Positions 2 through 21,521 of a DNA stretch of 64,000 nucleotides are shown here, piece after piece; position 1 is the first letter of the stretch; every line of letters starts with the position of its first letter. The stretch comes from Gemmatimonadota bacterium (GTDB lineage: Bacteria > Gemmatimonadota > Gemmatimonadetes > Gemmatimonadales > GWC2-71-9). The translations under genes and the position numbers were made by a program. Below the pieces are notes generated by a model that was not told the origin of the DNA, did no database searches, and saw only the letters and a list, made by a program, of their open reading frames with translations. Where the stretch lies: NCBI GenBank assembly GCA_029863245.1, contig JAOTVV010000016.1, positions 914 to 64,913 of the forward strand, given 5' to 3'.

Positions 2-1243
2 GCGGCGACGATCTCCTCGGCAGCCAACCAGACGTTCGTGGTGGGGGACGCCGCGACCACGGCGGCGGTGATCACGGTAACGGACGACGCGGTGGCGCCC
101 ACGATCAACTCGGGGCAGGAGATCCGGATCCGGATTCCGACGGCGTTCCCGATGACGTGGAACACGGCGGTGACGACGGTGACGGTGGGGGGCAGTGCGG
201 CGGCGAAGGTGAAGACGGTACTGAAGAACTACGAGGACGGCGGGAAGACGGCGGTGGTGGACGTGGACGTGAACTTCGTGGCCGGGGATCAGCTGACGAT
301 CACGGGCTTGCAGTTCATGAACTTCACGGCGGCGGCGGCGGCGGACCGGCTGGGGCTGGACGTGACCGACGACCAGGTGGCCGACGCGCTGGACGACAAG
401 ACCAAGGCAATCGGGGCGCCGCAGTTCACGTCGGCGGCCCATCAGAACTTCACGGTGGGCGGGGCGCCGCGGGCGATCAGCCCGATCACGGTGACCGACT
501 ACGCGAGCTTCGGGACGGTGACGGCGGCGCGGGACCTCCGGATCCGGATCCCCACGGGCTTCCCGATGACGTGGGAGACCGGGGACGTGGCGGCGACGCT
601 GGGGGGGAGTGCGGCGGGGAAGGTGTCGCCCACGGTGAGTTATGAGAACGGGGGCCGGACGCTGTGGCTGGACGTGCTGACGGACTTCGTCCCAGGCGAC
701 GTGCTGACGATCAGTGACCTGAGCTACGCCAACTTCACGACGAGCGCGGCGTTGAACCGGCTGGAGCTGGTGCTGGCGGGCGCGGGAGCGGGGACGGCGG
801 CACAGGATCTCAATTCGATTTCGGTGGGGGCGGCCACCATCTCCTCGGCCACGTACCAGACGTTCGTGGTGGGGAGCCCCGCCACGCCCATCAGCCTCAT
901 CACCATCACCGACGACCCGGTGGCACCCAAGGTCACGGCGGGCGGCGAGCTCCGGATCCGGATTCCGGCCGGCTTCAACATGGTCTGGAATACGGCGGTG
1001 ACGACCGTGACGCTGGGGGGGAGTGCGGCGTCGAAGGTGAAGACGACGCTCAAGAACTACGAAGACGGCGGGAAGACGGCGGTAGTGGACGTGGACGTGA
1101 ACTTCGCGGCGGGGGACCAGCTCACGATCTCCGGCTTGCAGTTCATGAACTTCACGGCACCGTCGGCACCGGACCGGCTGGGCCTGGACGTGAACAACGA
1201 CAAGTTCCCGGACGCGTTCGACGACAAGACCAAGACGATCATC
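2..1243 (+). repeat. Three tandem 414-nt (138-aa) coding repeats in A-B-A' order
   Basis: Units at 2-415, 416-829 and 830-1243 all share RIRIP.GFPM.W / GGSAA.KV / YE.GG.T / F..GD.LTI. Units 1 and 3 are much closer to each other than to unit 2. Confidence 0.9.
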
Positions 1244-2213: not shown

Positions 2214-2399
2214 ATGGTCTTGAGGTGCCCGCACTGCGAAACGCTCGCGCGATATCTTCGCGGTGACTTCAGCGGCAAGTGGGTGATCTGCCACGTCTGC
2301 GAAGCACCGTTCGCGTGGCGCGAGCACCAGACGCAGCTGGAAGGGGCGAAAACCGTGTGGGGCAGAGCCCGACGCAGCACGGAGGAGACGGAGCGATGA
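2214..2399 (+). CDS. Small zinc-ribbon protein (CPHC...CHVC)
   Basis: GGAG precedes ATG 2214 (alternative GTG 2202). Two CxxC pairs. The stop overlaps the next start (ATGA 2396-2399). Confidence 0.6.
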   Translation: MVLRCPHCETLARYLRGDFSGKWVICHVCEAPFAWREHQTQLEGAKTVWGRARRSTEETER

Positions 2400-2926
2400 A
2401 CACGACGCGATACAGCTGGATCGCCGCGGCACTCGTGGCCGCAACGGTGACGCCCTTGGCCGCGCAGCAGGGCGAGCCCCAGGCCCTCGTCATTTCAGCG
2501 CAGAACCTCATGGCTGGGGACGAGCGGCACCAGGAATTGGCCGATCCTACCGCGCTGCTTCCCGGGGACGTGGTCCAGTACCGGCTGGTGTTCACCAACG
2601 TGAACGCCGTGCCGGTGCGCAACATCGCGCTGAACGACCCGATCCCGTCGGGACTCCGCTACGTCGGCGCCTCGGCCGCAGCCGATCGCGACGACACGGT
2701 GGTCGAGTTCTCGATCGATGGCGGAGTGACCTTCGCCGCCGAGCCGATGATCGAGGAGATGGTGGACGGCAAGCCGGTGATGAAGCCGGCGCCGCCGGAA
2801 CGCTACACGCACGTCCGTTGGACGGTACAGGGCTGGGTGCAACCCGGCGCCACGGTCACGGCCGAGTTTCAAGCCCGGCTGCCGGGCGCCGCAGCCGTCC
2901 CGGACAGTACCGCGAACGCCAAATAG
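2396..2926 (+). CDS. Secreted single DUF11-like domain protein (putative chaperone or assembly factor)
   Basis: RBS GGAGGAG and signal peptide (…TPLAA-QQ). Motifs LLPGDVVQYRLVFTN, LNDPIP, VEFSIDGG, YTHVRW, AEFQARL. Confidence 0.85.
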   Translation: MNTTRYSWIAAALVAATVTPLAAQQGEPQALVISAQNLMAGDERHQELADPTALLPGDVVQYRLVFTNVNAVPVRNIALNDPIPSGLRYVGASAAADRDDTVVEFSIDGGVTFAAEPMIEEMVDGKPVMKPAPPERYTHVRWTVQGWVQPGATVTAEFQARLPGAAAVPDSTANAK

Positions 2927-4307: not shown

Positions 4308-4334
4308 GTTACCAATCCGGTTACCATCGGTAAC
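4308..4334 (+). promoter_or_regulatory. Putative upstream activator sequence, second copy
   Basis: GTTACcaatccgGTTACcatcgGTAAC, with the same spacing as 2033-2059. Confidence 0.65.
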
Positions 4335-4424
4335 TCCAGGGCCTCCAGCCTGCAAACGGGGCAAATCCTCTCCGCTAAGTGATTATGCTGTAACAGCTTA
4401 GGTAGCCCGCATGTGAGCGGTGTT

Positions 4425-4472: not shown

Positions 4473-7400
4473 ATGCCACACGCAGGCCGAACAATGCGGA
4501 CCGGTATCCGGCCCGGGAGGGGACTCCTCGGGGCGGTCGCTGTGCTGCTGTGCTGTGGCTTGCCGCTCGAGGCTCAGGGACCCACCGCCGCTGGAACCGA
4601 GATCTCCAACGTCGCCCAGGCCACCTACGTGGCGCCCAACGGTCACACCTTCACCGCCGTCTCCAACGTCCTGGTGGTGACCGTCGCCCAGATGGCCGGC
4701 GTCGACCTCGCGCCCCCACGCACAACCACCGCAAACCCGGGTGGCCGCGTGGTGTTCGCCCACACCGTGACCAACGCGGGCAACGGTACCGACAGCGTAC
4801 GGCTCTCGGCCACATCGGCCGCCGGTTGGCCCACGCTGATCTACCGTGACCTGAACGGTGACGGCGTCCTCGACGCCGGAGAGTCGCAGATCCAGGGGCC
4901 GGTCACGCTCTCCGCGGGTGCCGCGATGGCTCTCCTCGTCGTCGTGGACGTTCCGACCTCGGCGACCGTGCGCGGCACCACCGACTCGGTGACGGTTGTC
5001 GCGGTGAGTGAGTTCGACGGCTCCCGACGCGATGCCTGCGTCGACGTGCTCCAGATCCAGGACGTCGGTGTCCTAGTCACGCTCTCCAAGCTCGTGGACC
5101 GCACCACGGCGACGGCCGGGGACATCCTCACCTACACCGTGAGCTACGCCGCTACCGGGACGAACACTGCTTTGACGCTCGCCATGGCCGACCCGATCCC
5201 GCTCGGGTCGTCGTACGTGGCGGGCTCGCTCGAGTGGAACGGCGCGCCGCTCACCGACGGGACCGGTGACGACGCCGGGACGTTCGATCCGGCAGGGAAC
5301 CGGGTGCTCTTCGGGGTGGGCGACGTTCCGGGAGGACAGAGTGGCGTAGTGGCGTTCCAGGTGCGCATCGACGGCGGCCTTGCCGCGGCGACGCCGGTGG
5401 CCAACAACGCAAGCGCCTCCTACGGGACGGTGGCCGGCACCGACTCGGTTGCCTCGAACACGGTCGTCACGACCATCGTCCTCGCGCAGCTCGGGCTGGA
5501 GAAGGTCCTGGTCGGTCCGACCACGGCGCGAATCGGGGAGCAGATCTCCTACACGCTCGTGTCGGTCAACCGATCGAGCACCACGCCGGCCCGCGATGTG
5601 GTTCTCTCCGACACCCTGCCGCCGGAGCTCGAGTACGTGACGGCCAGTCCTGGGGCGAACGTCCTCGGCCAGGTGGTGTCGTGGACCTTGGGCGAGGTTG
5701 CACCGGGCGACTCCGTCCGCGTCTCGCTCACGGCCCGGGTCTCGAGCCTGGTGCGCGACACGCTCTCGGTGCGGAACCTCGCTGTGCTGGCGGCGACGAA
5801 CGCCCCCACGCAGACGGCCATGTCAGACGGCGTCGACCTCGTGGGACTCCTGCCCAATCAGCTCTCGCTGGAGAAGACCGCCGACGTGCTCGAGGTGGGG
5901 TTGGGTGAGACGGCGCCGTACACTCTGGTGCTCGAGAACACTGGGGACAACGCGCTCTCCGGGATCGTGATCGTTGACACCTTGCCGCTGGGTGGCCGCT
6001 ACGCGGAGGGCAGCGCGATCGGGGCGGACTCGGTGCGGGTCGACGGACGGGTCGTCACGTTCTTCGTCACGGGGCCGTTGGCACCAGGTGCCAAACACAC
6101 GGTCCGCTACACGATGGCCGTCGTGTCGGCCGAGACGCCCGTGCTGGAGAACCGGGCCGTGGCGACCGCCGAGGGCGGGTTCGTCGTGGCGAGCATGCAG
6201 CTGGCCTGGGTCCGCGTGCGGCGGAGCTGGCCCATGGAGACCCGCGCGGTGATCGGCAAGGCGTGGCTCGACGTGAACGACGATGGCCGCCAGGGTGCCG
6301 GCGAGCTTGGGGTGGCCGGTCTCGACGTGTGGACCGACGACGGCGAAGTGGCGACCACGGATGGCGACGGGAAGTTCTCGTTCAGGAACGTGCGGCCCGG
6401 CGGTCATGCCTTCAGGATCGATCCGACCACGGTGCCGGCCGGCTACCGCATCGCAGCGTCGGATCGGATCGTGCCGGTGGACGCGGACGGCTGGACCACC
6501 CCGAACGTGCAGTTCCGGCTCGTGCCCACCACTGGTCGCGTGGAGGGCGCGCGCATCCCGGTGCCGTGGACGGTCGCGGTACGGCACGTTCGCCCCCCGG
6601 CAGACAGCCCACCCCCGACCCTCGCGGTGACGGCGCAGATAACCGACGCCGTCGATTCGACCGAGGCGGCGTCACCGTCGGTCCCGCTGGCCGTCCTGCC
6701 CGTGACCTTCGGCGTGGGGTCGGCGGTGCTCACGTCGGAATCCCACACAGTGCTCGACGACGTGGCGGGACTGCTGGTAGCGAGCCCGGAAGTCGAAGTC
6801 GAGATCGCCGGCCACACCAGCTCGACCGGGCCACGCCTGTTGAATCTGCGGCTCTCGCTCGAGCGGGCAACATCCGTGACCGACTACCTCATCGCGAGTG
6901 GCATCGATCGCTCACGCGTTCGCGTCGAGGCTTACGGGCCCGACAGACCAGCGGCGAGCAACGACACACCCGAGGGCCGGGCCCGGAACCGACGCGTCGA
7001 AATGAACTTGGTGCGGGGGACCAACGCGGCCGCCGCGGCCACGTTCGTGCGCGGCTTGGCAAGTGTGGGGCTTGCCGACAGCGCGCTTGTTCCGTCCGCT
7101 CCGCCCGCGCCGCGCCCGCCCGTCACCGAGTATGCTGTGACGCTCGCCAACCCAACTGGCCGGCCCCTCGACGGCCTGTCGCTGCGATTCGAAACGCCCC
7201 CCGACTCCGCCAGGCTCGTGATCGGGGGCGCGCCGGCGCACGTAGATCCCGCAACGATGGCGCTCCCGCCCATCGCGCCGCGTGCGAACGTTGCGCTCAC
7301 GGTGTGGGCGACCGCGACCGGCGATTCGACCTGGGTCGCACTGCAGGCACCCGGCCGCGCGGGCGAGCGGATGGCCGTGAGCGTGGCCGACCTGCCCGTC

Positions 7401-10400
7401 CCCACCGAAGGCGTGATAGACGTCGCCGTCGAAACAGCCGATCTCCCCGACCCGGCGCTGGTGGGAGCCGGTCGCGCGGTGACGCTGTCGGTCGCGCCAG
7501 CGACTCGCGGGTGGCCCGAGCTCACGCTGCCGCTGCCCAACGGGTGGGAGCCGGTGCCCGGCAGTACCCGCCTCGCCGGTGTGCCCACGCCCGACCCGGC
7601 CGCGCGGGCCGACTCCGGTGGTGGGACCCTGCTGGTCTGGGACTTCGGGAAGCGCGCGATGGGTCCGATCACGGTCGAGATGCGCCCGGCGGCGCATACG
7701 ATGCCGGACGAGTCAGTAACCATCCCCGCACTCCGGAGCGATACAGACCGCCTGGAGGACCGTCGAACGGCATTCCTGTTCGGGCCGTCCGTCGAGATCT
7801 TCGGGCTCCAGGATGGGACGATCACCGCCCGCGATCGCGTCTTCATCGGTGTGAAGGGCGAGGCTGGGCAGCCGGTCACCCTGTACGACGGTGACTCGGT
7901 GCTTGCGCGCGGCAATATCCGGATCGACGGCATTCACGACTTCATCGCCGTTCCGCTCGACCCGGGTCCGCACGTGCTGCGCGTAGCCATGCGCAACACC
8001 TGGAGTCAGGAGCGGTGGGACAGCATCGCCGTGCACGTGAGCGACGTGCCCGCCAGCCTGGTGGGTTCGACAGGCACGCTCACGCTGCGGGCGGATGGCC
8101 AGAGTGTCGAGACCGTCCGGGTCCGGATGCTCGATCGCTGGGGCGTGCCCCTCGTGTTCCCGACGCAGGCCACGGTGACGGTGGACGGCGCCGAGGCGCT
8201 GGGGAGCGACACCGACCCCTCGTCGGTCGGGCTGCAACACCGGACCGACTCGCTCGGCTGGCTCACCGTCCGGATCAAGCCGGGCCACGAGGTGCGTCGC
8301 GGCAGGCTCGCGCTGCGAACGGCCGATGTGACGTACGAACGCCCACTCGAAACGCTGCCTGCCACGCCTCCGTTGATGGTGACCGGTGTGGGCCGAGTGG
8401 GTGTGGGCGCCAGTCCCGACGCGTTCGGTGCGATCACGGCCCGCGGTCGGCTGGATGACCGCACGTCGGTGGTGGTGAGCGTCGACTCCCGGCGCCTCGA
8501 TGCCAACCGCGAGACATTCGGCCGCGACTTCGATCCGTTGGATGAGGCCCAGTACCCCATCCTGGGCGATGCCAGCAGCGTGCGGACCGTGAGCGCGTCG
8601 CAACACGCCGTGGCCGCCCGCATCGAGCGCGGCTTCGACTGGCTCGCCATTGGTGACGTGTCGACCGGCGATTTCGCTGAGGGACTGAGCCTCGCCGCCT
8701 ACAGGCGGGCCCTGTCCGGAGGCATGGCGCGGATTGCCACGGGGCCCGTCTCCTGGCGCGGGTTTGCCAGCGTCACCAGTCAGAGCCTCGAGCAGGAACA
8801 GATCCGCGGCGCCGGCATCTCGGGTCCGTACTCACTGGGCGGCGCGGCGATCCCCGGCACCGAGCAGATCGTGGTCGAGATGCGCGATCGCGAAAACCCG
8901 CAGCGCGTGCTCACTCGACAGATGCTGGTCCGCTTCATCGACTATCAGATCGACTACCAGGTGGGAACGCTCCTGTTCAAGCGACCCGTGCCGGCTGCCG
9001 ACGCGGCCGACAACCCCGTGTTCCTGATGGTGACCTATGAGGGGCGCAGTGGAGGAGACCAGCGCCTCGTGGGTGGCGTTCGCGCCAGCCTCGATGCGCT
9101 GGGTTGGTCGAGGCTCCAGGTCGATTCGCTGCGGCTGGGTGTCACCGCGATCCATGCCGACGAGCCCGGCGGGGCGTTCGACATGACCGGCGTCGACGTG
9201 CGACTCCTCCGGTTCGCCGGGTTCGATCTGGGTGGTGAGATCTCCTACTCGCATGCTCCGGACTCGAGCGGCTTCGCCACGTCGCTCACCGGATCCGTCG
9301 AATTGTTGGGTGGCGCCGCCAAACTGTCGGCGTCGTGGATGAAGATCGGCGACGGCTTCGGGAACCCGTCCAACATCGCGCTCCGGGCCGGCACCGAGGA
9401 ATTCAAGGCTGGCGGCACGTTCCAGGTTGGCGGCACGACGCTCCGCGCGCAGCACGACTTCATGACGTCCACGTCACAGGACGTGAGCCGTCGGCGTACG
9501 ACCCTCGGCGTGGGGCAGCCGGTGGGGAAGACCCTGAGGATCGAGGCGAATCAGACACTCGACAGTTTCGAGAACGGCGCCGACGGTGACCGCTCGCAGG
9601 CGTTGGAGGGGAAGCTCGTGTGGACACCCCTCGACCGGCTCGAGTTGTGGGCCGAGGGGCGGCAGCAGCTGGGGTCGAGCGAGAGCTTGGTGCGGCCGAA
9701 TCACGTCGGGGCAGGGGCGGGCGTCAACGTCACTGATGACCTCCGCGTCGAGCTGCGGCATCGCCGCGTGCTCCTCCCCGCGGACGAGTCGTACGGGGTC
9801 ACCAACATCGGGCTCACGTCGGACGTTGGCTTCGGCACTCGGGCCTGGGGATCCTATCAACTCGCTGGCGGTGCCGGCGCGCAGTACAACGCCGCGATCA
9901 TCGGTCTCAACAACCGGATCACCCTCGGTTCGGCCTGGACGGTGAACTCGATGTTCGAGCGTCGGTTCGGACTGAACGATGCGGAGCTGGGCGACCCGGT
10001 CCGCGCGCTCCCGTTTCTGCAGGACGAAGAGGACTACTGGTCTGCCGGGCTCGGGGTGGAGCTGTTGCCGCAGGGCGCCCCCTACCGCGTGACCGCACGC
10101 GGTGAGTACCGCGACGGCGAGCGGCTGTCGACCCGCCTGTTCACGCTGGCCGGTGATCTCTCGTTGAATCGCTCGCTGGCCGTGCTGTCCCGCCAGGAGC
10201 TGCTCTCCACTGAGCAGACCCTCACTACCGGAACCGAAACCGGTCGGCGCGTCGCGTCCCTCTGGGGGGTAGCGTTCCGGCCTATCGGCAGCGAGGCGGT
10301 GAACGTGCTGACCAAGGTCTCCTGGCTCGACGAGACCAACCCTCGGAACCGGGGCGTGTTGACCAGCCTGGGTCAGGAGCAGCGCCTGATCGGGGCGGCC

Positions 10401-10814
10401 GAGGTGATTTGGACACCGACACGCCGCACCGAGCTGGCGGGCCGCTATGCCATCCGCCGCACCGAGGCCGATCGGCTGCACGAGGACGGCGTCACCCAGC
10501 GGCTCGAGTCCACGGCCGACTACGTGGGCGCGCGCACCAGCGTGATCATCAACCCGTTCCTCACCTTCCGGGCGGATGGACGTCTCCTGATCGAGCGCGC
10601 GAGCGGCACCACCCGCTGGGACGCGGCACCGGCACTCGCCGTTGGGCTGCTCGATCTCCTCGAGGTGGTGGTGGGCTACCGCTTCGGTGACCTACGGGAT
10701 CCGGACTTCTCGGTTCGCGGCGGGCATGGGGCGTTCCTCACACTCGGCACCAAGGTCACGGAAGGGTCTGTCGCGACCGTGGCCGACTTCTGGCGCTCTC
10801 GGTTCGGTAGCTGA
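4473..10814 (+). CDS. Giant outer-membrane protein: subunit-like N-terminus, three DUF11 domains, SdrD-B-like domain, OmpA-like domain, Ig-like domains and a C-terminal beta-barrel
   Basis: Signal peptide, then TAAGTEISNVAQATY. Three K...G..(L/I/A).YT...D.(I/L)P modules. VIGKAWLDVNDDG...TTDGDGKFSF; GHTS...LSLERA...NRRVE; long amphipathic beta-strand C-terminus. Start set at ATG 4473 (RBS, downstream of the promoter). Confidence 0.88.
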   Translation: MPHAGRTMRTGIRPGRGLLGAVAVLLCCGLPLEAQGPTAAGTEISNVAQATYVAPNGHTFTAVSNVLVVTVAQMAGVDLAPPRTTTANPGGRVVFAHTVTNAGNGTDSVRLSATSAAGWPTLIYRDLNGDGVLDAGESQIQGPVTLSAGAAMALLVVVDVPTSATVRGTTDSVTVVAVSEFDGSRRDACVDVLQIQDVGVLVTLSKLVDRTTATAGDILTYTVSYAATGTNTALTLAMADPIPLGSSYVAGSLEWNGAPLTDGTGDDAGTFDPAGNRVLFGVGDVPGGQSGVVAFQVRIDGGLAAATPVANNASASYGTVAGTDSVASNTVVTTIVLAQLGLEKVLVGPTTARIGEQISYTLVSVNRSSTTPARDVVLSDTLPPELEYVTASPGANVLGQVVSWTLGEVAPGDSVRVSLTARVSSLVRDTLSVRNLAVLAATNAPTQTAMSDGVDLVGLLPNQLSLEKTADVLEVGLGETAPYTLVLENTGDNALSGIVIVDTLPLGGRYAEGSAIGADSVRVDGRVVTFFVTGPLAPGAKHTVRYTMAVVSAETPVLENRAVATAEGGFVVASMQLAWVRVRRSWPMETRAVIGKAWLDVNDDGRQGAGELGVAGLDVWTDDGEVATTDGDGKFSFRNVRPGGHAFRIDPTTVPAGYRIAASDRIVPVDADGWTTPNVQFRLVPTTGRVEGARIPVPWTVAVRHVRPPADSPPPTLAVTAQITDAVDSTEAASPSVPLAVLPVTFGVGSAVLTSESHTVLDDVAGLLVASPEVEVEIAGHTSSTGPRLLNLRLSLERATSVTDYLIASGIDRSRVRVEAYGPDRPAASNDTPEGRARNRRVEMNLVRGTNAAAAATFVRGLASVGLADSALVPSAPPAPRPPVTEYAVTLANPTGRPLDGLSLRFETPPDSARLVIGGAPAHVDPATMALPPIAPRANVALTVWATATGDSTWVALQAPGRAGERMAVSVADLPVPTEGVIDVAVETADLPDPALVGAGRAVTLSVAPATRGWPELTLPLPNGWEPVPGSTRLAGVPTPDPAARADSGGGTLLVWDFGKRAMGPITVEMRPAAHTMPDESVTIPALRSDTDRLEDRRTAFLFGPSVEIFGLQDGTITARDRVFIGVKGEAGQPVTLYDGDSVLARGNIRIDGIHDFIAVPLDPGPHVLRVAMRNTWSQERWDSIAVHVSDVPASLVGSTGTLTLRADGQSVETVRVRMLDRWGVPLVFPTQATVTVDGAEALGSDTDPSSVGLQHRTDSLGWLTVRIKPGHEVRRGRLALRTADVTYERPLETLPATPPLMVTGVGRVGVGASPDAFGAITARGRLDDRTSVVVSVDSRRLDANRETFGRDFDPLDEAQYPILGDASSVRTVSASQHAVAARIERGFDWLAIGDVSTGDFAEGLSLAAYRRALSGGMARIATGPVSWRGFASVTSQSLEQEQIRGAGISGPYSLGGAAIPGTEQIVVEMRDRENPQRVLTRQMLVRFIDYQIDYQVGTLLFKRPVPAADAADNPVFLMVTYEGRSGGDQRLVGGVRASLDALGWSRLQVDSLRLGVTAIHADEPGGAFDMTGVDVRLLRFAGFDLGGEISYSHAPDSSGFATSLTGSVELLGGAAKLSASWMKIGDGFGNPSNIALRAGTEEFKAGGTFQVGGTTLRAQHDFMTSTSQDVSRRRTTLGVGQPVGKTLRIEANQTLDSFENGADGDRSQALEGKLVWTPLDRLELWAEGRQQLGSSESLVRPNHVGAGAGVNVTDDLRVELRHRRVLLPADESYGVTNIGLTSDVGFGTRAWGSYQLAGGAGAQYNAAIIGLNNRITLGSAWTVNSMFERRFGLNDAELGDPVRALPFLQDEEDYWSAGLGVELLPQGAPYRVTARGEYRDGERLSTRLFTLAGDLSLNRSLAVLSRQELLSTEQTLTTGTETGRRVASLWGVAFRPIGSEAVNVLTKVSWLDETNPRNRGVLTSLGQEQRLIGAAEVIWTPTRRTELAGRYAIRRTEADRLHEDGVTQRLESTADYVGARTSVIINPFLTFRADGRLLIERASGTTRWDAAPALAVGLLDLLEVVVGYRFGDLRDPDFSVRGGHGAFLTLGTKVTEGSVATVADFWRSRFGS

Positions 10815-10885: not shown

Positions 10886-11335
10886 GTGACCGAGCCCATG
10901 ACGCAGATCAACATGCAGCGCGTTGCCCTGGGGGCCCTGGCGGCCGGAGCCGTGATCTTCGTGGCCGAGCGGATCCTGAGCCAGTTCTACATGGGCCCGA
11001 TGCAGGCATCGCTCGAGGCCCACAACCTGTCCATGGACGTCACGGTGAGCGGCTTCGTGCTAGCGGCACTGGTCTCGCTGCTCGTCGGCTTCGCGCTGGT
11101 CTGGTTCTATGCCGCGGTGCGGTCGCGGTTCGGTCCCGGACCCAAGGCCGCCGCACTCGTGAGCGTCGTGTTGTGGCTGGGCGGCTACGTGCCGTCGGTG
11201 CTGGGCTACAAGATGATGGGGCTATTCACCGACTGGCTGCTTGTGTTCTGGGCGCTCACGGGGCTCGCCGAAGTAATCGTGGCCACGATGGTCGGCGGTT
11301 GGCTCTACAGGGAGAGCGAGTCGGGCGCAGCGTAG
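10886..11335 (+). CDS. Hypothetical membrane protein with four hydrophobic helices
   Basis: Four hydrophobic segments. AAGGAG RBS; start may be ATG 10898. Confidence 0.75.
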   Translation: MTEPMTQINMQRVALGALAAGAVIFVAERILSQFYMGPMQASLEAHNLSMDVTVSGFVLAALVSLLVGFALVWFYAAVRSRFGPGPKAAALVSVVLWLGGYVPSVLGYKMMGLFTDWLLVFWALTGLAEVIVATMVGGWLYRESESGAA

Positions 11336-11434
11336 CTCGGGGGTTCCTTGCCCCCGGCGGCATTGGGCATTAGGGTGCGCGCGGGCAGCGCGGCGGCTAT
11401 CGGCGACTTGCGCCGAGGTATAGCTTCACTCGCG

Positions 11435-12484
11435 ATGCAGACCCTGATTGAGCAGTGGAGCGGCGAAGCGGTCGTCACGAGGTACGATCGGGAGACCGAG
11501 ACCTGGGTCTTCATCGCCATTCACGACACGACCCTGGGTCCCGCCATGGGCGGGTGCCGCGTCTGGCAGTATCCGACGCCGGCCGATGGTCTGCGTGATG
11601 CGATGCGTCTCGCCGAGGGCATGACACATAAGTGGGCAGCCATCGGGTTCGACCTCGGTGGTGGGAAGAGCGTGCTCGCTGTGCCACGTCCGTTGGAGGG
11701 CGACGCGCGACGGGGGTTGCTGCGGCGGTTCGGGCGGCTCGTCGCGTCGCTCTGCGGTGCCTACCAATGTGGGCCCGATCTCGGGACCACCCCGGACGAC
11801 ATGGCCGTGATCGGCGAAGAGACCGAGTACGTGCACGGCTACGATCGCGTCCACGGCCAGCCGGTCGATCCCGGACCGTTTACGGCGCTCGGCGTATTTG
11901 TGGGGATGCGCGCTGCGCTGCAGCAGGCGTTCGGGTCCGTCGAGTTTGCCGGGCGGACGGTGCTGGTGCAGGGGATCGGTGACGTTGGCGTGCCGCTGGC
12001 ACGTCAGGTGGCCGAGGCCGGGGCCACGCTCGTGCTGAGCGACACCGACCACAACCGGGCGGAGCGGCTCGCCACAGCGCTTGGCGCACGCACGGTGCCG
12101 GCCGACCAGATCTCCACGACGCCGTGTGACGTGTATGCTCCCTGCGCCATCGGGGGGATACTCAACGCGACTACGATCCCGCTTCTCGGCTGCCGCGTCG
12201 TGGCGGGGTCGGCCAACAACCAACTGGCGGAGCCGGCCGACGCCGACCGGATGCACCGGCGGGGGATTCTCTACGCCCCGGATTATGTGATCAACGCCGG
12301 CGGGGCAACTGCGCTACCGCTGCTCGGGCGAGGGCACGCGGCCGAGGAGGTTCTGGACCGCATTCGAACGTTCGAGCGGACCCTCACCGAGATCTTTTCC
12401 GTGGCTGTGGCGAACGACGAGTCGCCGTATCACGCCGCACAGCGCCGAGTGGACCGGGTGCTGACGGCGAGGCGGCGTGCCTGA
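11435..12484 (+). CDS. Glu/Leu/Phe/Val dehydrogenase (leucine dehydrogenase-like)
   Basis: IAIHDTTLGPAMGGCR, GGGKSV, VQGIGDVG, GSANNQL, APDYVINAGG. Confidence 0.92.
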   Translation: MQTLIEQWSGEAVVTRYDRETETWVFIAIHDTTLGPAMGGCRVWQYPTPADGLRDAMRLAEGMTHKWAAIGFDLGGGKSVLAVPRPLEGDARRGLLRRFGRLVASLCGAYQCGPDLGTTPDDMAVIGEETEYVHGYDRVHGQPVDPGPFTALGVFVGMRAALQQAFGSVEFAGRTVLVQGIGDVGVPLARQVAEAGATLVLSDTDHNRAERLATALGARTVPADQISTTPCDVYAPCAIGGILNATTIPLLGCRVVAGSANNQLAEPADADRMHRRGILYAPDYVINAGGATALPLLGRGHAAEEVLDRIRTFERTLTEIFSVAVANDESPYHAAQRRVDRVLTARRRA

Positions 12485-16531: not shown

Positions 16532-18475
16532 ATGCGGAAGGCCGTGCAGGTGGTCGGTATGCTCGTGTTCGGGTCGTCAGTGGTTGCGCCGCCCGGCGAC
16601 GCACAGCAGCGCATCGGCTGGACGGGTGGCTCCCCATTCGAGCGGCTCGACCTGCCGGCGGCCACCACGATCCGGACCGGAGCCGGTCGGCCGGGGCCGG
16701 ACTACTGGCAACAGCGGGCCGACTACACGCTCGTGGCCAGTGTAGACACCAGTAGCCAGCTGCTCACCGGCAGTGGGACCCTGCGATACCACAACAACTC
16801 TCCCCACACGCTGCGCTTCCTGTGGCTCAACCTAGACGCGAACCTGTGCGATCCGCAGAGTGAGGCCGGCGTGCTGAGCGTCCCGCCCCTGCTATTTGGC
16901 GATGCCGTGTTCGACTTCTCCTGCCAGGGCGGCAGCGGGATGACCCTCGAGCATCTCACGGTGGGCGGTCACTCCGTTGGCCATCGAGTCTATGGGACCG
17001 TCGCGCGAGTCGATCTCGCCACGGCCCTCCCGCCGGGAGGAACCGTCGAGCTGGAGATGGCGTGGCGCTGGACGCTCCCGGAGTACGGGTACGGCCGCAT
17101 GGGTCGCGACGGCACGCTCTACCAGGTGGCACAGTGGTATCCGCGTGTTGCCGTGTACGACGACGTGAGCGGCTGGAACGTGGCCCCGTTCCTGGGCGCG
17201 GGGGAGTTCTATCAGGAGTACGGCGACTTCGCGGTGGCGCTGACGGTACCCGCGGGCTACGTGGTAGCCGCGACCGGGACGGTCCAGAATCCGGACGTGG
17301 TGTTGACGGCTGCGCAGCGCGAGCGGCTCGCGCGAGCCCGCCGATCGGAGTCGGCCGTGGCAATCGTGACGGCTGACGAGGCGCGCCAGGCGCGGCAACG
17401 AGCGGTGCCTGGCACCAGAACCTGGCGGTTTGTTGCGCACAATGTGCGTGACTTCGCCTTCGCCATGGCGCCGGATTTCCGGTGGGACGCGAGCACGTGG
17501 GACGGGACGTTGATTCAGACGTTCTACCGACCGGAGGCCACGCTGTGGGAGGAGGCGAACCGCATGTCGTGGGTGAGCATCAAGCATTTCTCGGAACGCC
17601 TGGCGCGCTATCCCTACCCGCATGCCACCACGGTCGAAGGTCCCAACGAGGGCATGGAGTATCCGATGCTCACCTTCGTGCCCAGGGGTGGGTCGCGGGA
17701 GGAACTGTATTGGGTGTTGACCCACGAGTTCGGTCACGAGTGGTACCCGATGCTGGTGAACTCCAACGAGCGGCTGTACCCGTGGATGGACGAAGGCTTC
17801 AATACGTTCATCGACATCGGATCGGTCGAGGAGTACTTCGCGGGCGAGGCGTACGGCGACACGATCGACCTCCAGCCGCTGCACCTCTACGCCCTGCACG
17901 CCCTTGCGGGCAGGGAACAGGCCATGGCGCTCCCGCCCGACGAGCAGCATGATCTGTTCTGGGCGGCCTACTTCAAACCGGCGCTCATGCTGCATCTGCT
18001 GCGTACGGAGGTGCTGGGTCCCGAGCGATTCGACCGAGCGTTCTCGGACTACACCGAGGCATGGTCGTTCAAGCACCCCACGCCGGCGGACTTCTTTCGC
18101 TTCATGGAGGACGCTGCGGGCGCGCAGCTGGACTGGTTCTGGCGCGGATGGATCTACTCCACGGCACGGCTCGACCAGGCCGTTGCCGGGGTGGTGCTCG
18201 GGGGCGACAGCACCGAAACGGAGATCCATCTGCGCAACCGTGGTGCCATGGTGATGCCCGCGGAGCTGGCGCTCACCTTTGCGGATGGGTCGAAACAGAC
18301 CCTGCGACTTCCCGTCGAGATGTGGAAGCTGGGCCCCGACTTCGTCTACCGATTGCCGGCCGGTCGGTCGCTCGTCGCCGTGGAGTTGGACCCGCGCGGC
18401 GTGTATCCGGACGATGACCACGACAACGACACGTGGCGCGCCCCGGCGTCGGGCAAGGGGCCGCCCGGGCGCTAG
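16532..18475 (+). CDS. M1 family zinc metallopeptidase (secreted)
   Basis: GMEYP and HEFGH-x18-E (WMDEGFN); signal peptide. Confidence 0.93.
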   Translation: MRKAVQVVGMLVFGSSVVAPPGDAQQRIGWTGGSPFERLDLPAATTIRTGAGRPGPDYWQQRADYTLVASVDTSSQLLTGSGTLRYHNNSPHTLRFLWLNLDANLCDPQSEAGVLSVPPLLFGDAVFDFSCQGGSGMTLEHLTVGGHSVGHRVYGTVARVDLATALPPGGTVELEMAWRWTLPEYGYGRMGRDGTLYQVAQWYPRVAVYDDVSGWNVAPFLGAGEFYQEYGDFAVALTVPAGYVVAATGTVQNPDVVLTAAQRERLARARRSESAVAIVTADEARQARQRAVPGTRTWRFVAHNVRDFAFAMAPDFRWDASTWDGTLIQTFYRPEATLWEEANRMSWVSIKHFSERLARYPYPHATTVEGPNEGMEYPMLTFVPRGGSREELYWVLTHEFGHEWYPMLVNSNERLYPWMDEGFNTFIDIGSVEEYFAGEAYGDTIDLQPLHLYALHALAGREQAMALPPDEQHDLFWAAYFKPALMLHLLRTEVLGPERFDRAFSDYTEAWSFKHPTPADFFRFMEDAAGAQLDWFWRGWIYSTARLDQAVAGVVLGGDSTETEIHLRNRGAMVMPAELALTFADGSKQTLRLPVEMWKLGPDFVYRLPAGRSLVAVELDPRGVYPDDDHDNDTWRAPASGKGPPGR

Positions 18476-18854: not shown

Positions 18855-21521
18855 TCATCCGGTGTTCCGCATGCCCGCCGCGATCCCGTTTACCGTGAGG
18901 AGCATGGCGTCGAGGAGTCGCGTGTCGTCCGGGCTCTTCCGCAGGCGACAGAGGATCTCCGTCTGCACCAAGTTGATGGGATCGATGTAGGGATTGCGCA
19001 CGTCGATGGAGCGCTGTAGCACGGGGTTCCCGTCGAGCAGGCGGTCGTGGCCGGTTACCTGAAGGACGACGTCCGTCGCACGTTCCAGGCGCTCCCGCAG
19101 GTCGGTCCCGATGGAGCGGATGCCTTCGGGGACTAACCGCTCGTCGTACTGCGCGGCGATGGCCGGCGACGCCTTGGCCAGCACCATCTCCACCAGATCG
19201 ACCGTCGACCGGAAGAACGGCCACCGCTCACACATCTCGCGCAACGTCTCGAGCTGTCCGGTGCGGAGTGGCTCGTCGAAGGCCTCGCTGAACCCGAGCC
19301 AGGCGGGGAGCAAGAGGCGCGTCTGCATCCAGGCAAAGACCCATGGGATGGCGCGGAGCGATTGCACCCCGGATCCCGGGCGCCGCCGCGCAGGCCGGCT
19401 GCCGATCTTGAGTGCGCCCAGCTCCACCTCGGGTGTGGCCGCGCGAAAGTAGTCCACGAACTCCGGCGTCTCGTACACGATCCGGCGATACGCCTCGCGG
19501 GACGTGTCGGCGAGCCCGCGCATATGCTCGCGCCACGCGGGGTCGGGCGCGTCGGCCGGGAGCAGCGTGGCCTCGAGCGTGGCCGTGATGTAGACCTCGA
19601 GCGTCCGCGATGCGATGCCCGGGAGGTCGAACTTGGCGGAGATCATCTCCCCCTGCTCGGTCACGCGGAGCGTGCCGTCTACCGAACCGGGTGGCTGCGA
19701 CTGGATCGCCAGATGGGTGGGGCCGCCGCCCCGTCCCACCGTGCCACCACGACCGTGAAACAGGGTGAGGGGCACGTTCTGCTCGCGGCACGCAGCGACG
19801 ATGGCCTCCTGGGCCTCGTACAGCTCCCAAGCGGCGGCGAGCCGGCCGCCGTCCTTGGCCGAGTCCGAGTAGCCGAGCATCACCTCTTGCCGCCCCGCGA
19901 TCCGGTCGCGATAGCCGGGGATGGCGAGCAGTTCGCGCAGGGTGGCGCCCGCCCGCCGCAGGTCGTCCACCGTCTCGAACAGGGGAACCACGCGGAGCGG
20001 CGGATCGAGCCGAGCGGCGATCTGCAACGCCTGGACGGCGAGCACGTCGGACGGCTGGGTGGCCATCGAGATCACATAGGCCCCCAGTGATCCCGGAGGG
20101 ATCGATGCCACCGTGCGGAACGTCTCGAGCACGTCGCGCACGTCGGGCTCGAATCGATCCGTCGACGTCAACGCCCGCCTGATGGCTCCGCCGCCCGCCG
20201 CGATCTGGTCGCACAGGAACCGTTGCCGCTCGGTCTCGTCCCAGCTGGCGTACGAGCCCAGTCCCAGCTGCTGTGTGACCGCGTCGAGTGCTTCGGCGTG
20301 GCGCGCCGACTCCTGACGCAGGTCGAGCCGCACGAGTGTCAAGCCGAAGCACGCGAGCCGGCGCTGAATGTCCAGCAGCCGGCCGCCGGCCAAGACGCCC
20401 GCACCCGTGGCCTCGAGCGACCGACGGCACAGCTCGAGCGGCTCGGCGAGATCCTCGGCCCGCCAGCACATGCGCTCGGCCGTGGCGCGATCGGGGACCT
20501 TCCACTCGAGCATCAGCTCGATGCCCGTGCGGGTTGCCCGCAACCGGTCGCGCAGATCCCGGAGCAGCGCGCGGTAGGGCTCGCGTGTCTTCCCGACCTG
20601 CGCCCTCAGTTCGGGGCTGGCATCACTGAGCGAGAGTTCCGCCCTGAGCGCCGACAGCTCCCGGAGATACAGGTCGGCCGCCATCCAACGCGCGAGCAGC
20701 GTCGCCTGCACGGTGATCTCGGGGGTCACGTGCGGGTTGCCGTCGCGGTCGCCCCCCATCCACGAGCCGAAGCGGATCGGCGCGGCGTCCCGGGGGAGTT
20801 CCCTGCCGATGGCCGACCGCAGGGCCCGGTCCAGCGCGCGGAGATTGGCTGGCACCGCGTCCCACAGCGTCTGCTCGAACACGACGAGTCCCCAGCGGAC
20901 CTCGTCGAGCGGTGTCGGCTGGGTGTGGCGCACTTCGTCGGTCTCCCACGCGATCGTGATCTCGCGCAGCAGGGATTGGCGGATTTCCTCCCGTTCGGCA
21001 GGCGTCAGGTCACTGCGGTCCTGCCGCCCCAGGAGATCCGCAATGCGCCGATGGGATCGTCGCAGCGTGCGGCGCACGATCTCAGTCGGGTGCGCGGTGA
21101 GCACCAGCTCGACTTGCAGGGTGCACACCTGCTCGAACAGGGCGTCGGGTGGGATCCCCCTCTCGAGAAGGCGGGCGAGTGCGTCCGCGAACGACCCCGG
21201 CTGGGGCGGCGCATCGGGATCATGTTGGTATTCGCGCCGCCGGCGCACGCGGTGATGCTGTTCAGCGATGTTGGCCAGCGTCAGGAAGTGCGCGAACGCC
21301 CGGGCGACGGGCAGGGCGTCGTCCACCGGAAGCTGTTGGAGCAGTTCCCGTAGTTCGCCGAAGCATCCCGTTTCACCCTGTCGCGCACGCTTGGAGAGCG
21401 CGCGCACGCGCTCCACGGTCTCGAACAGGGGCACGCCTTCTTGCTGACGCAGGGTCTCGCCCAAGAGGCTGCCAAGGAGCCGGACGTCGTCGCGGAGCGG
21501 ACGGTGGGGATCGGTGGTCAC
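18855..21521 (-). CDS. ppc: Phosphoenolpyruvate carboxylase
   Basis: VLTAHPTE, GSWMGGDRDGNP, QEVMLGYSDSAKDGG, FHGRGGTVGRGGGP, LRAIPWVF, C-terminal GMRNTG. Confidence 0.98.
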   Translation of the reverse strand: MTTDPHRPLRDDVRLLGSLLGETLRQQEGVPLFETVERVRALSKRARQGETGCFGELRELLQQLPVDDALPVARAFAHFLTLANIAEQHHRVRRRREYQHDPDAPPQPGSFADALARLLERGIPPDALFEQVCTLQVELVLTAHPTEIVRRTLRRSHRRIADLLGRQDRSDLTPAEREEIRQSLLREITIAWETDEVRHTQPTPLDEVRWGLVVFEQTLWDAVPANLRALDRALRSAIGRELPRDAAPIRFGSWMGGDRDGNPHVTPEITVQATLLARWMAADLYLRELSALRAELSLSDASPELRAQVGKTREPYRALLRDLRDRLRATRTGIELMLEWKVPDRATAERMCWRAEDLAEPLELCRRSLEATGAGVLAGGRLLDIQRRLACFGLTLVRLDLRQESARHAEALDAVTQQLGLGSYASWDETERQRFLCDQIAAGGGAIRRALTSTDRFEPDVRDVLETFRTVASIPPGSLGAYVISMATQPSDVLAVQALQIAARLDPPLRVVPLFETVDDLRRAGATLRELLAIPGYRDRIAGRQEVMLGYSDSAKDGGRLAAAWELYEAQEAIVAACREQNVPLTLFHGRGGTVGRGGGPTHLAIQSQPPGSVDGTLRVTEQGEMISAKFDLPGIASRTLEVYITATLEATLLPADAPDPAWREHMRGLADTSREAYRRIVYETPEFVDYFRAATPEVELGALKIGSRPARRRPGSGVQSLRAIPWVFAWMQTRLLLPAWLGFSEAFDEPLRTGQLETLREMCERWPFFRSTVDLVEMVLAKASPAIAAQYDERLVPEGIRSIGTDLRERLERATDVVLQVTGHDRLLDGNPVLQRSIDVRNPYIDPINLVQTEILCRLRKSPDDTRLLDAMLLTVNGIAAGMRNTG

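Follow-up and report, generated by a model that had tools for sequence, protein, structure and literature searches.

The closest described relatives of the system treated here are fibrillar adhesins built from DUF11 domains. In the accessible part of PMC12617251, DUF11 is renamed CLIPPER and is described as a CnaA-like domain held by an intramolecular Lys-Asp-Asn isopeptide bond (K715/D748/N806 in structure 9IFR), and 9IFR is said there to come from a fibrillar adhesin of Acinetobacter silvestris that has an 'OmpA-like anchoring domain'. Next to it stands a Chloroflexota preprint on a DUF11 filament of 6596 amino acids (aa). Our full-text literature searches (DUF11, isopeptide, donor strand, Gemmatimonadetes barrels) retrieved no paper describing the cassette or the barrel dealt with below, namely a 2113-aa protein and its neighbours encoded in a 64,000-nucleotide stretch of DNA from a Gemmatimonadota bacterium (C23:914-64913, from here on the window; source genome 3.68 Mb, 93.9% complete). 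We consider it slightly more probable than not, at roughly 55%, that the 2113-aa protein forms the end nearest the cell of a surface fibre made of several proteins, in which a basal subunit is fused to an outer-membrane barrel.

A first-pass annotation of the window had placed the open reading frame (ORF) of the 2113-aa protein at 4473..10814, and it was confirmed there on the + strand with an ATG at 4473 and a stop codon at 10812-10814; an alternative in-frame GTG at 4413 would lengthen the N-terminus by 20 aa. The frame is not a chance one, because its C-terminal 864 aa are matched by 1707 clusters and are about 50% identical across the Gemmatimonadota homologues. DNA nearly identical to the cassette locus is also contained in sediment metagenome runs; no RNA run containing it was listed. 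The parts that the annotation had read from the letters (a donor segment, an Ig domain with a DxNxDG loop, a stalk of DUF11 and SdrD_B-like domains, an OmpA-like domain, a Pro-rich/Ig region and a barrel-like C-terminus) are all present in that order in Pfam and in two AlphaFold2 models (Table 1). The models cover residues 35-1135 (mean predicted local distance difference test (pLDDT) 82.2, predicted template modelling score (pTM) 0.40, as expected of a beads-on-a-string chain) and residues 1114-2113 (mean pLDDT 84.1, pTM 0.71). The loop is DLNGDG at residues 126-131, within YRDLNGDGVLD (124-134), in the N-terminal Ig-like domain. Pfam recognized DUF11 in three stretches (96.6 bits, cut-off 24.6), SdrD_B at residues 597-665 (40.6 bits, cut-off 29.7) and OmpA (PF00691) at residues 745-840 (69.5 bits, cut-off 27.2), and had no match in residues 850-2113; an NCBIfam scan of the protein gave OmpA-type matches only, all under their cut-offs. 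In the PDB the OmpA domain matches YiaD, PA0833 and ArfA (Rv0899) with E-values of 1e-17 to 1e-20, and it has an alpha/beta fold in the AlphaFold2 model.

Upstream of the barrel gene and on the same strand lie the genes of three secreted DUF11-type proteins, here called rep, p215 and p410. The mature N-terminus of the 2113-aa protein (Q35 GPTAAGTEISNVAQATY...SNVLVVTVAQ) is homologous to that of p410 (Q29 TPEGTIITNTATVNY...SASVSITVAF), with 37% identity over about 115 aa, and both have the pattern of the hairpin that closes an intact DUF11 domain, e.g. that of domain D1 of the 2113-aa protein (...PVANNASASY...SNTVVTTIV). A profile of intact D1 aligned residues 39-72 of the 2113-aa protein to positions 97-129 of its 135 positions (independent E-value (i-E) 4e-4 in a search of 4 sequences, a small search space) and residues 27-64 of p410 to positions 93-129 (i-E 0.033); those domains that are truncated matched an earlier part of the profile. 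On this sequence evidence the mature N-terminus of the 2113-aa protein appears to be a CLIPPER/DUF11 domain's last beta-hairpin, present as an orphan copy. At their other ends, rep (...GSFEYVARIK*), p410 (...SRHFWIQAQVN*) and p215 terminate right after the F strand, rep in 7 loci, p410 in 8 loci and p215 in 7 loci with a short non-hairpin tail added, and none of these ends carries an LPXTG-type sorting signal. The intact domains D1-D3 of the 2113-aa protein run on past the F strand into an x-N-x-A hairpin. All 40 aligned sequences of the p410 family terminate at one and the same column after the F strand; Q29, T30, E32, T34, I36, N38, A40, K312 and D357 are invariant among the 40, and the N-terminal hairpin is the most conserved block of the alignment.

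The donor segment proposed in the first-pass annotation thus finds support in the logic of the split domain, and also in a complex prediction. For residues 29-410 of p410 together with residues 35-205 of the 2113-aa protein the prediction scored 0.74, the best of three controls scoring 0.00; of 157 solved complexes 116 scored that high, as did 2 of 215 mismatched pairs, counts that are rough because our own alignments were used. At least 96% of the contacts agreed between docking runs, and the pLDDT of the partner was at least 88. Predicted contacts of residues 35-74 of the 2113-aa protein are to residues 305-314, 323-339, 348-363, 395 and 409-410 of p410 and include K312, D357 and N46. Since residues 35-74 contact the last domain of p410, the interface is the one that the split-domain idea predicts, and we regard it as probable from the models that the hairpin of the 2113-aa protein docks on the truncated last domain of p410.

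Domain D2 has the triad K344/D380/N435 with a Lys-to-Asn spacing of 91, equal to that in 9IFR, and D1 and D3 show the same K...D...N pattern. At the split joint the triad is divided: Lys and Asp are found in the acceptor (K312 and D357 of p410) and Asn in the donor hairpin (N38 of p410, N46 of the 2113-aa protein). An intermolecular lock is plausible because the acceptor Lys and Asp and the donor Asn all lie in the predicted interface between p410 and the base; going by these residues, we would give even odds to an isopeptide bond that locks the p410-p410 and p410-base joints.

That the 2113-aa protein is a fusion became apparent from its distant relatives, which have about 1020 aa and consist of a signal peptide followed by an Ig and Big_1 pair, the barrel and a terminal helix. 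A scan of metagenome contigs with an alignment of three distant barrel relatives yielded 27 loci, some of them near-duplicates; scans with single relatives (P0205 or P0206 against genome contigs, P0206 against metagenome contigs) yielded no loci. At 25 of the 27 a barrel protein of about 1030 aa with its own signal peptide is encoded directly after a large stalk ORF on the same strand, often with an overlap of a few bases; of the remaining two, one (L050) is fused as in our genome and one has no upstream sequence. The stalk ORFs contain one or more OmpA domains near the C-terminus in 19 of 25 cases (none by BLAST in the other 6) and the hairpin motif near the N-terminus in 17 of the 20 that are not cut by a contig end. 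Four stalk proteins analyzed with Pfam have 7-9 DUF11 stretches plus SdrD_B, and two of the four have two OmpA domains. Upstream of the stalk ORF are found p410-like proteins (539-633 aa, with hairpin start and F-strand end), p215-like proteins (160-278 aa) and tip proteins ending at the F strand. Residues 32-1006 of the distant relative P0206 align to residues 1113-2080 of the 2113-aa protein (E 1e-80), and the stalk protein of locus L032 aligns to residues 36-844, hairpin and OmpA domain included. These two alignments, together with the two adjacent genes in distant lineages, indicate that in the 2113-aa protein a basal stalk-OmpA subunit has been fused to a barrel protein. By sequence alignment the joint would lie between about residues 865 and 1113, and the low-confidence linker 1076-1113, together with the Ig domains 884-1072, spans the junction of the two parts.

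Two further arrangements are found among relatives. In genome G189 a single chain of 5314 aa carries at least 29 DUF11 repeats and has the barrel at its C-terminus (L021:2001-17945); the same contig encodes a paralogue of 2636 aa with 11 DUF11 repeats. In G094 a gene for a 371-aa OmpA lipoprotein (L019:6303-7418; lipobox LVGC) overlaps the stop codon of a distant 2081-aa DUF11-barrel protein; the latter lacks an OmpA domain of its own, and thus the wall anchor is supplied in trans. Altogether, barrel relatives were found in 25 of 201 sampled Gemmatimonadota genomes and a close homologue in 19 of 201, a patchy spread that marks an accessory system. The order p215-p410-barrel gene is kept in all seven relatives' loci that were fetched, with rep upstream on the same strand in five (G109, G059, G121, G106 and G073), divergent in G023 and not seen in G150.

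The AlphaFold2 model makes it highly probable that residues 1302-2095 form a very large outer-membrane beta-barrel, of a family that has neither a name nor a solved structure; the barrel-like sequence of about 800 aa noted at first is thereby predicted to be a membrane barrel with 44 DSSP strands. Polar and non-polar residues alternate in the strands, and many strands are linked by two-residue turns. In Foldseek the C-terminal model retrieved outer-membrane barrels, besides Ig-repeat proteins matching its two Ig domains; the barrel matches all had low template modelling (TM) scores (LptD, E 8e-9, TM 0.18-0.21; SlpA, TM 0.24; BtuB; MtrB). For the ushers and SprA, the comparison suggested in the annotation, the likeness was generic (FimD, TM 0.14-0.16; SprA, TM 0.07-0.11). 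In an exhaustive VIA-align comparison SlpA from Deinococcus ranked first (Z 14.8, 446 residues aligned, root mean square deviation (rmsd) 11.7), followed by porins, FhaC, PapC (Z 11.9, 303 residues), TonB-dependent receptors, SprA (Z 10.4) and LptD. The neighbouring Big_1/invasin-like domain aligned with invasin (Z 11.4, rmsd 2.3).

In sequence the barrel stands apart. A PDB search with a profile of 50 barrel-family members found no barrel and did not retrieve SlpA, so that the likeness to SlpA appears to be one of fold level only. PDB searches with the whole protein and with the C-terminal profile found OmpA, SdrD and glycosidase Ig domains only, hence no match to a characterized transporter, and in the ESM Atlas the barrel matched only unnamed 'outer membrane protein' clusters. 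The 2113-aa protein has no Usher (PF00577) match at E<=0.1 and no match to Autotransporter (PF03797), IAT_beta (PF11924), ShlB-type or SlpA_C (PF21620) families. The family itself is large: 1707 representative clusters are found at E<=0.001, and at the stricter E<=1e-10 there are still 1406. A Pfam barrel scan of relatives, which included 18 alignment members, gave for distant relatives scattered sub-threshold or marginal matches to SlpA_C, OMP_b-brl, MtrB_PioB, IAT_beta, OprF, YfaZ and DUF5777, among them SlpA_C in one relative (30.6 bits, cut-off 35) and IAT_beta in one distant relative (18.8 bits, cut-off 22.3). Membership in these families was rejected, the scores being read as generic beta-hairpin likeness.

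Two stretches are the most conserved of the barrel family, and a conserved helix follows the barrel. One of the two stretches is a 41-residue loop (8487-8609) with YPILGDAS, in which D1366 is invariant and the pLDDT is 32-38; the low-confidence residues are 1345-1375, and the QYPILGDAS cited in the annotation is residues 1360-1368. The other is a 69-residue insert of short strands, residues 1446-1514 (8808-9014), with RFIDYQIDYQ, to which RFIDYQIDYQVGTLLF (residues 1487-1502) belongs. Loop 1345-1375 and the insert are conserved even in relatives at 26% identity; each might serve as a plug, a latch or a substrate site. The helix comes after the last strand (10761-10808), with TE..A.FWR.RF here and KFSE..F.W in distant relatives. 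Outer-membrane proteins usually end with their last barrel strand, and a terminal helix is therefore unusual.

From these findings we propose the following assembly. Residues 35 to about 1075 would constitute a basal subunit composed of the hairpin, an Ig/CLIPPER/SdrD_B stalk, the OmpA domain and two Ig domains (884-1072), and its OmpA domain would hold the base of the fibre on the periplasmic peptidoglycan. Residues from about 1113 to 2113 would provide two more Ig-like domains and the very large outer-membrane barrel. Subunits would be joined where a donor hairpin complements a split CLIPPER domain. In this way the 2113-aa protein would complete the truncated C-terminal domain of p410 with its hairpin, and p410, with the identical hairpin, would complete the truncated last domain of the head protein of about 1940 aa, of another p410 or of p215. 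The chain head-p410-base would then mimic one long adhesin running from an N-terminal head to a C-terminal barrel, and wherever Lys (acceptor strand A), Asp and Asn are all present, as with K312, D357 and N46, the joint would probably be locked by an intermolecular isopeptide bond. The domain anatomy, the fold class of the barrel, the pattern of split domains, the predicted docking of the hairpin, the co-occurrence and the relation of fused to split forms are computational results; the location at the surface, the passage through the barrel and the covalent lock are inferred.

The annotation had pointed out a topological puzzle, the OmpA domain being expected in the periplasm and the stalk lying N-terminal to it, and this puzzle is real and conserved. 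It had offered two solutions, that the stalk threads out through the barrel or that assembly is nucleated from the periplasmic side. We favour the former, because in the split forms the sole recognizable envelope anchor of the stalk is the periplasmic OmpA domain and because the 5314-aa chain of G189 would be too long to lie extended in the periplasm; the latter survives as one of the rivals below. The barrel would probably be the passage through the outer membrane, with the stalk leaving through it and the OmpA domain and four Ig domains staying below; on balance we regard it as a toss-up whether the stalk does pass through the barrel. The disordered linker 709-735 is a candidate for the segment at or near the crossing, and the simplest reading of the barrel is that of a conduit or collar.

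Several observations weigh against this proposal. The docking score may in part reflect the likeness of the two pieces to known intact CLIPPER folds, and what the prediction indicates is that the two pieces can rebuild one domain, which is not the same as binding in the cell. Of 27 sequences compared, the base has the hairpin Asn in 17; in the others Asp (3), Ser (4), Ala (2) or another residue (1) takes its place, so that the Asn is not universal. The acceptor Lys of rep is present in five of seven loci and is replaced by Arg in our genome and in one relative, and p215 has the Lys in none of seven loci and the Asp in only four of them; with an Arg in rep and no Lys in p215, not every joint can be locked covalently. 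The disordered linker between SdrD_B and OmpA has only 27 residues, and therefore folded domains would have to sit in or traverse the lumen. The strand number of about 40 and the closure, lumen width and any plug of the barrel are tentative readings of the DSSP strand lists of a model. The OmpA domain is missing from many homologues. The N-terminal part and the barrel are conserved to about the same degree (48% versus 52% identity in G023, for instance), so that the diversification which exposed adhesins often undergo is not apparent. Finally, p410 is present in exactly those 19 genomes that have a close barrel homologue and in none of the other 182, but these 19 genomes are kin, so that the co-occurrence speaks for linkage rather than being a statistical argument; the related loci are kin as well, and the 27 metagenome loci are to be counted with their near-duplicates in mind.

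How the barrel takes part can be seen in other ways. The annotation had called the protein an usher equivalent unrelated to PapC. The lack of relation holds, since neither the protein nor the genome has an Usher match and the fold likeness to FimD and PapC is generic only; the barrel is probably a conduit, but it is fused to a basal subunit and is thus not simply an usher. In a strict usher equivalent the barrel would be a catalytic platform of assembly and secretion, on which the periplasmic stalk primes the polymerization of p410 and head before extrusion. The separate barrel gene in 25 of the 27 distant loci, the two Ig domains ahead of the barrel at the place of the periplasmic domains of ushers and the predicted docking of the hairpin on p410 would fit such a platform. 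The base subunit, however, has a donor hairpin and no acceptor, and this restricts it to the final, proximal place in the chain and excludes a catalyst that is recycled. Furthermore, there is no obvious periplasmic room for the 5-6 Ig domains of the stalk beyond OmpA, in single-chain relatives the repeats on that side number up to 29 or more, and PapD_N is not found in the genome. We therefore hold the strict usher equivalent to be unlikely, and a catalytic, usher-like role of the barrel to be at most a candidate. A little less probable still is that the barrel only roots the fibre in the outer membrane and that the subunits cross elsewhere, e.g. via an unlinked secretion system. A plug could indeed be formed by any of four elements: loop 1345-1375, insert 1446-1514, the pair of Ig domains or the helix at the C-terminus. 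In the split forms, however, stalk and barrel are not covalently joined and OmpA is the only recognizable envelope anchor of the stalk, and therefore the barrel cannot anchor by fusion there; moreover, the cassette encodes no other outer-membrane component and travels as one self-contained unit.

The remaining rival concerns the location of the whole system. DUF11 occurs in chlamydial OmcB, and relatives of the 2113-aa protein have sub-threshold Pfam matches to Chlam_OMP6. The barrel could be a giant porin-like protein tied to the peptidoglycan via OmpA, with the DUF11 proteins forming a periplasmic scaffold as proposed for OmcB. The OmpA domain between stalk and barrel is compatible with such a tether, as are the SlpA_C score of the distant relative and the N-terminal part being no more variable than the barrel, and the best single fold match, SlpA, is itself an outer-membrane/cell-wall tether, which speaks against our proposal and fits a tether. 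On the other side, the patchy distribution is not that of a core envelope part, OmpA is missing from many members, the head proteins of about 1940 aa and the 5314-aa single chain are too long for the periplasm, and the Pfam scan and the AlphaFold2 model of the 2113-aa protein show neither an SLH domain nor a coiled coil. In the accessible text of PMC12617251, CLIPPER domains are described as the stalks of extracellular fibrillar adhesins. We rank the tether last in probability.

Returning to the fibre with a fused base, we put forward tentatively, and with more doubt than the fibre itself, that it represents a new class of pilus: pieces of an adhesin cut within self-crosslinking CLIPPER domains would be exported separately and clicked together head-to-tail, a natural tag-and-catcher that does without chaperone or sortase, rooted by OmpA in the wall and led across the outer membrane by a barrel. 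With about 40 strands, this barrel would exceed every other single-chain outer-membrane barrel known. In our genome, where root and barrel are fused, the 2113-aa chain would have to thread through itself. If true, there is a further route to Gram-negative surface fibres beside chaperone-usher, type IV, curli, type V and sortase pili; nature uses a split-domain, self-ligating assembly, the principle of engineered tag/catcher tools; a giant outer-membrane barrel family with 1707 representative clusters, no Pfam model and no solved structure is added to those known; and it is explained how an adhesin with a periplasmic wall anchor still reaches the surface. With fused and split forms both available, the topology can be tested directly.

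Table 1. Features of the cassette and domains of the 2113-aa protein (positions in the window)
Feature	Residues	Position	Strand	Description or basis
rep (head/tip)	C-terminal 667 aa	2..2005	+	~150-aa tandem repeats; ends in a CLIPPER/DUF11 domain cut before the last hairpin
Zinc-ribbon ORF (CPHC...CHVC)	61 aa	2214..2399	+	tblastn conservation
p215	176 aa from ATG 2396	2396..2926	+	Secreted single DUF11-like domain
p410, secreted subunit	410 aa	2968..4200	+	Putative donor hairpin Q29-F65; C-terminal CLIPPER without hairpin
Signal peptide	1-34	4473..4574	+	By eye; cleavage probably after LEA; aligned to the p410 site
Putative donor hairpin, GTEISN46VAQATY...SNVLVVTV	35-74	4575..4694	+	AlphaFold2, pLDDT 70-75; D1 profile; docking
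N-terminal Ig-like domain, homologous to first domain of p410	77-208	4701..5096	+	AlphaFold2, sequence comparison
Three intact CLIPPER/DUF11-type domains, D1-D3	218-583	5124..6221	+	Pfam, AlphaFold2
SdrD_B-like domain	592-706	6246..6590	+	Pfam, AlphaFold2
Disordered Pro-rich linker	709-735	6597..6677	+	AlphaFold2, pLDDT about 35
OmpA-like peptidoglycan-binding domain	737-864	6681..7064	+	Pfam, NCBIfam, PDB matches, AlphaFold2
Second Pro-rich linker	872-881			AlphaFold2
Two Ig-like domains	884-986 and 1003-1072	7122..7688	+	AlphaFold2
Ig-like domain and Big_1/invasin-like domain	1114-1193 and 1195-1297	7812..8363	+	AlphaFold2, structure alignment
Predicted giant beta-barrel	1302-2095	8376..10757	+	AlphaFold2, 44 DSSP strands
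C-terminal amphipathic helix and stop codon	2097-2112	10761..10814	+	AlphaFold2, conservation

The rep gene runs off the start of the contig, and its N-terminal part is found on contig C43 (L024:9655-12687). A stretch of 41 residues within the tandem repeats of about 150 aa is encoded both at the end of C43 and at the start of C23; if the two contigs abut, rep would have about 1941 aa, the number of repeats and hence the length being uncertain. An unmatched N-terminal domain of about 330 aa is followed by DUF7933, SdrD_B and three DUF11 domains. For the N-terminal domain there was no sequence match in the PDB and nothing above 0.83 in the ESM Atlas. The protein p215, which stops after the F strand and has neither an N-terminal hairpin nor a Lys at the isopeptide position, should by its sequence be able to accept a hairpin and unable to donate one; one may speculate that it is a non-covalent acceptor serving as cap, competitor or hairpin chaperone. 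The TGA of the zinc-ribbon ORF overlaps the ATG of p215. By tblastn (35-95% identity) this ORF immediately precedes p215 in G109, G059 and G121, and in G073 and G007 it comes right behind the barrel gene.

Within the genome, the end modules of the subunits occur only at the cassette locus and its contig-split continuation, which rules out a dispersed cargo set of the kind found in type IX secretion (T9SS). Usher, PapD_N and Sortase each gave no match in the genome (93.9% complete), the positive control (for Usher, E. coli) being detected in each case, and PapD_N was also absent from the neighbouring proteins.

Upstream of the head gene, on the strand of the cassette, a sigma-54-type response regulator (Response_reg, Sigma54_activat and HTH_8) is encoded and beside it, on the opposite strand, a hybrid histidine kinase plus Hpt protein (L024:4789-9391, contig C43). 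Regulator and kinase are also found upstream of the cassette in G109, G059 and G121 (62-90% and 44-86% identity, respectively). By eye we noted palindrome-like sites GTTACC-N3-4-GGTAAC in all three intergenic regions of the cassette (L024:9441-9460; 2044-2060 and 4309-4335 in the window), and also the 11-mer CTAAGTGATTA at about 4376 with its reverse complement at about 2121. At L024:9436-9450 the sequence TGGACGTTACCATGC has GG/GC spacing like that of a -24/-12 promoter and is a candidate seen by eye only; a search of the cassette with a strict sigma-54 promoter pattern gave nothing meaningful.

Downstream of the barrel gene a 149-aa gene (10886-11335) is kept in the same genus only and was for this reason ruled out as a member of the cassette. 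It is followed by ordinary, unrelated genes for a Glu/Leu/Phe/Val dehydrogenase (11348-12484) and an M1 peptidase (16532-18475), and by a phosphoenolpyruvate carboxylase gene on the minus strand (18855-21521), also unrelated to the cassette.

Among the known systems, the adhesin B9T28_05395 of Acinetobacter silvestris (9IFR), as far as it is described in the accessible text of PMC12617251, resembles the 2113-aa protein in its DUF11/CLIPPER stalk, the Lys-Asp-Asn triad, an OmpA-like domain toward the C-terminus, its size of about 2100 aa and its Gram-negative host; the sequence match to 9ifr_A is weak (E 0.12). It differs in being a single chain with intramolecular bonds, whereas in our cassette the domain is divided over separate proteins and the chain continues into a giant barrel. 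In the searched text of PMC12617251 the terms barrel and outer membrane do not occur. Strand complementation followed by a spontaneous covalent lock without sortase is described, in the sources as far as accessible, for BsaA of Clostridium perfringens and for the archaeal threads of Sulfolobus; their subunit folds are unrelated, neither system has a barrel or an OmpA base, and the hosts lack an outer membrane.

With chaperone-usher pili the cassette shares an incomplete Ig-like subunit that is completed by the N-terminal segment of the next one, a tip without donor, an outer-membrane barrel in the same operon and a tip-to-base order. It differs from them in the absence of any sequence relation to ushers and of a chaperone, in the donor, which there is a single strand and here a hairpin of two strands belonging to a CnaA-like CLIPPER domain, in a joint that is probably covalent, and in a last subunit that is anchored to the peptidoglycan and fused to the barrel. 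Usher barrels have 24 strands, the barrel described here about 40 DSSP strands. In type V secretion (classical and inverse autotransporters, two-partner systems) a barrel in the same chain or operon likewise carries or exports an Ig-repeat passenger. Here, too, a Big_1/invasin-like domain abuts the barrel and a wall-binding domain is periplasmic, as is the LysM domain of intimin. The barrel of the 2113-aa protein is, however, several times larger, and about 560 aa (OmpA and four Ig domains) would be periplasmic between the putative crossing segment and the barrel.

SlpA of Deinococcus and the OmpM-type tethers between outer membrane and wall also combine a very large C-terminal barrel with an N-terminal wall-binding module. 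Unlike them, the 2113-aa protein shows no sequence relation in the profile search, has no SLH domain or coiled coil, extends by a 700-aa stalk beyond its wall-binding domain, is encoded with a cassette of fibre subunits and is patchily distributed. SprA of the T9SS, whose barrel has 36 strands, is analogous in being a giant single-chain barrel that handles folded, Ig-rich surface proteins with a shared conserved C-terminal domain. The structural match is generic only (Z 10.4, Foldseek TM 0.07-0.11), and in our genome the shared end domain is confined to one locus.

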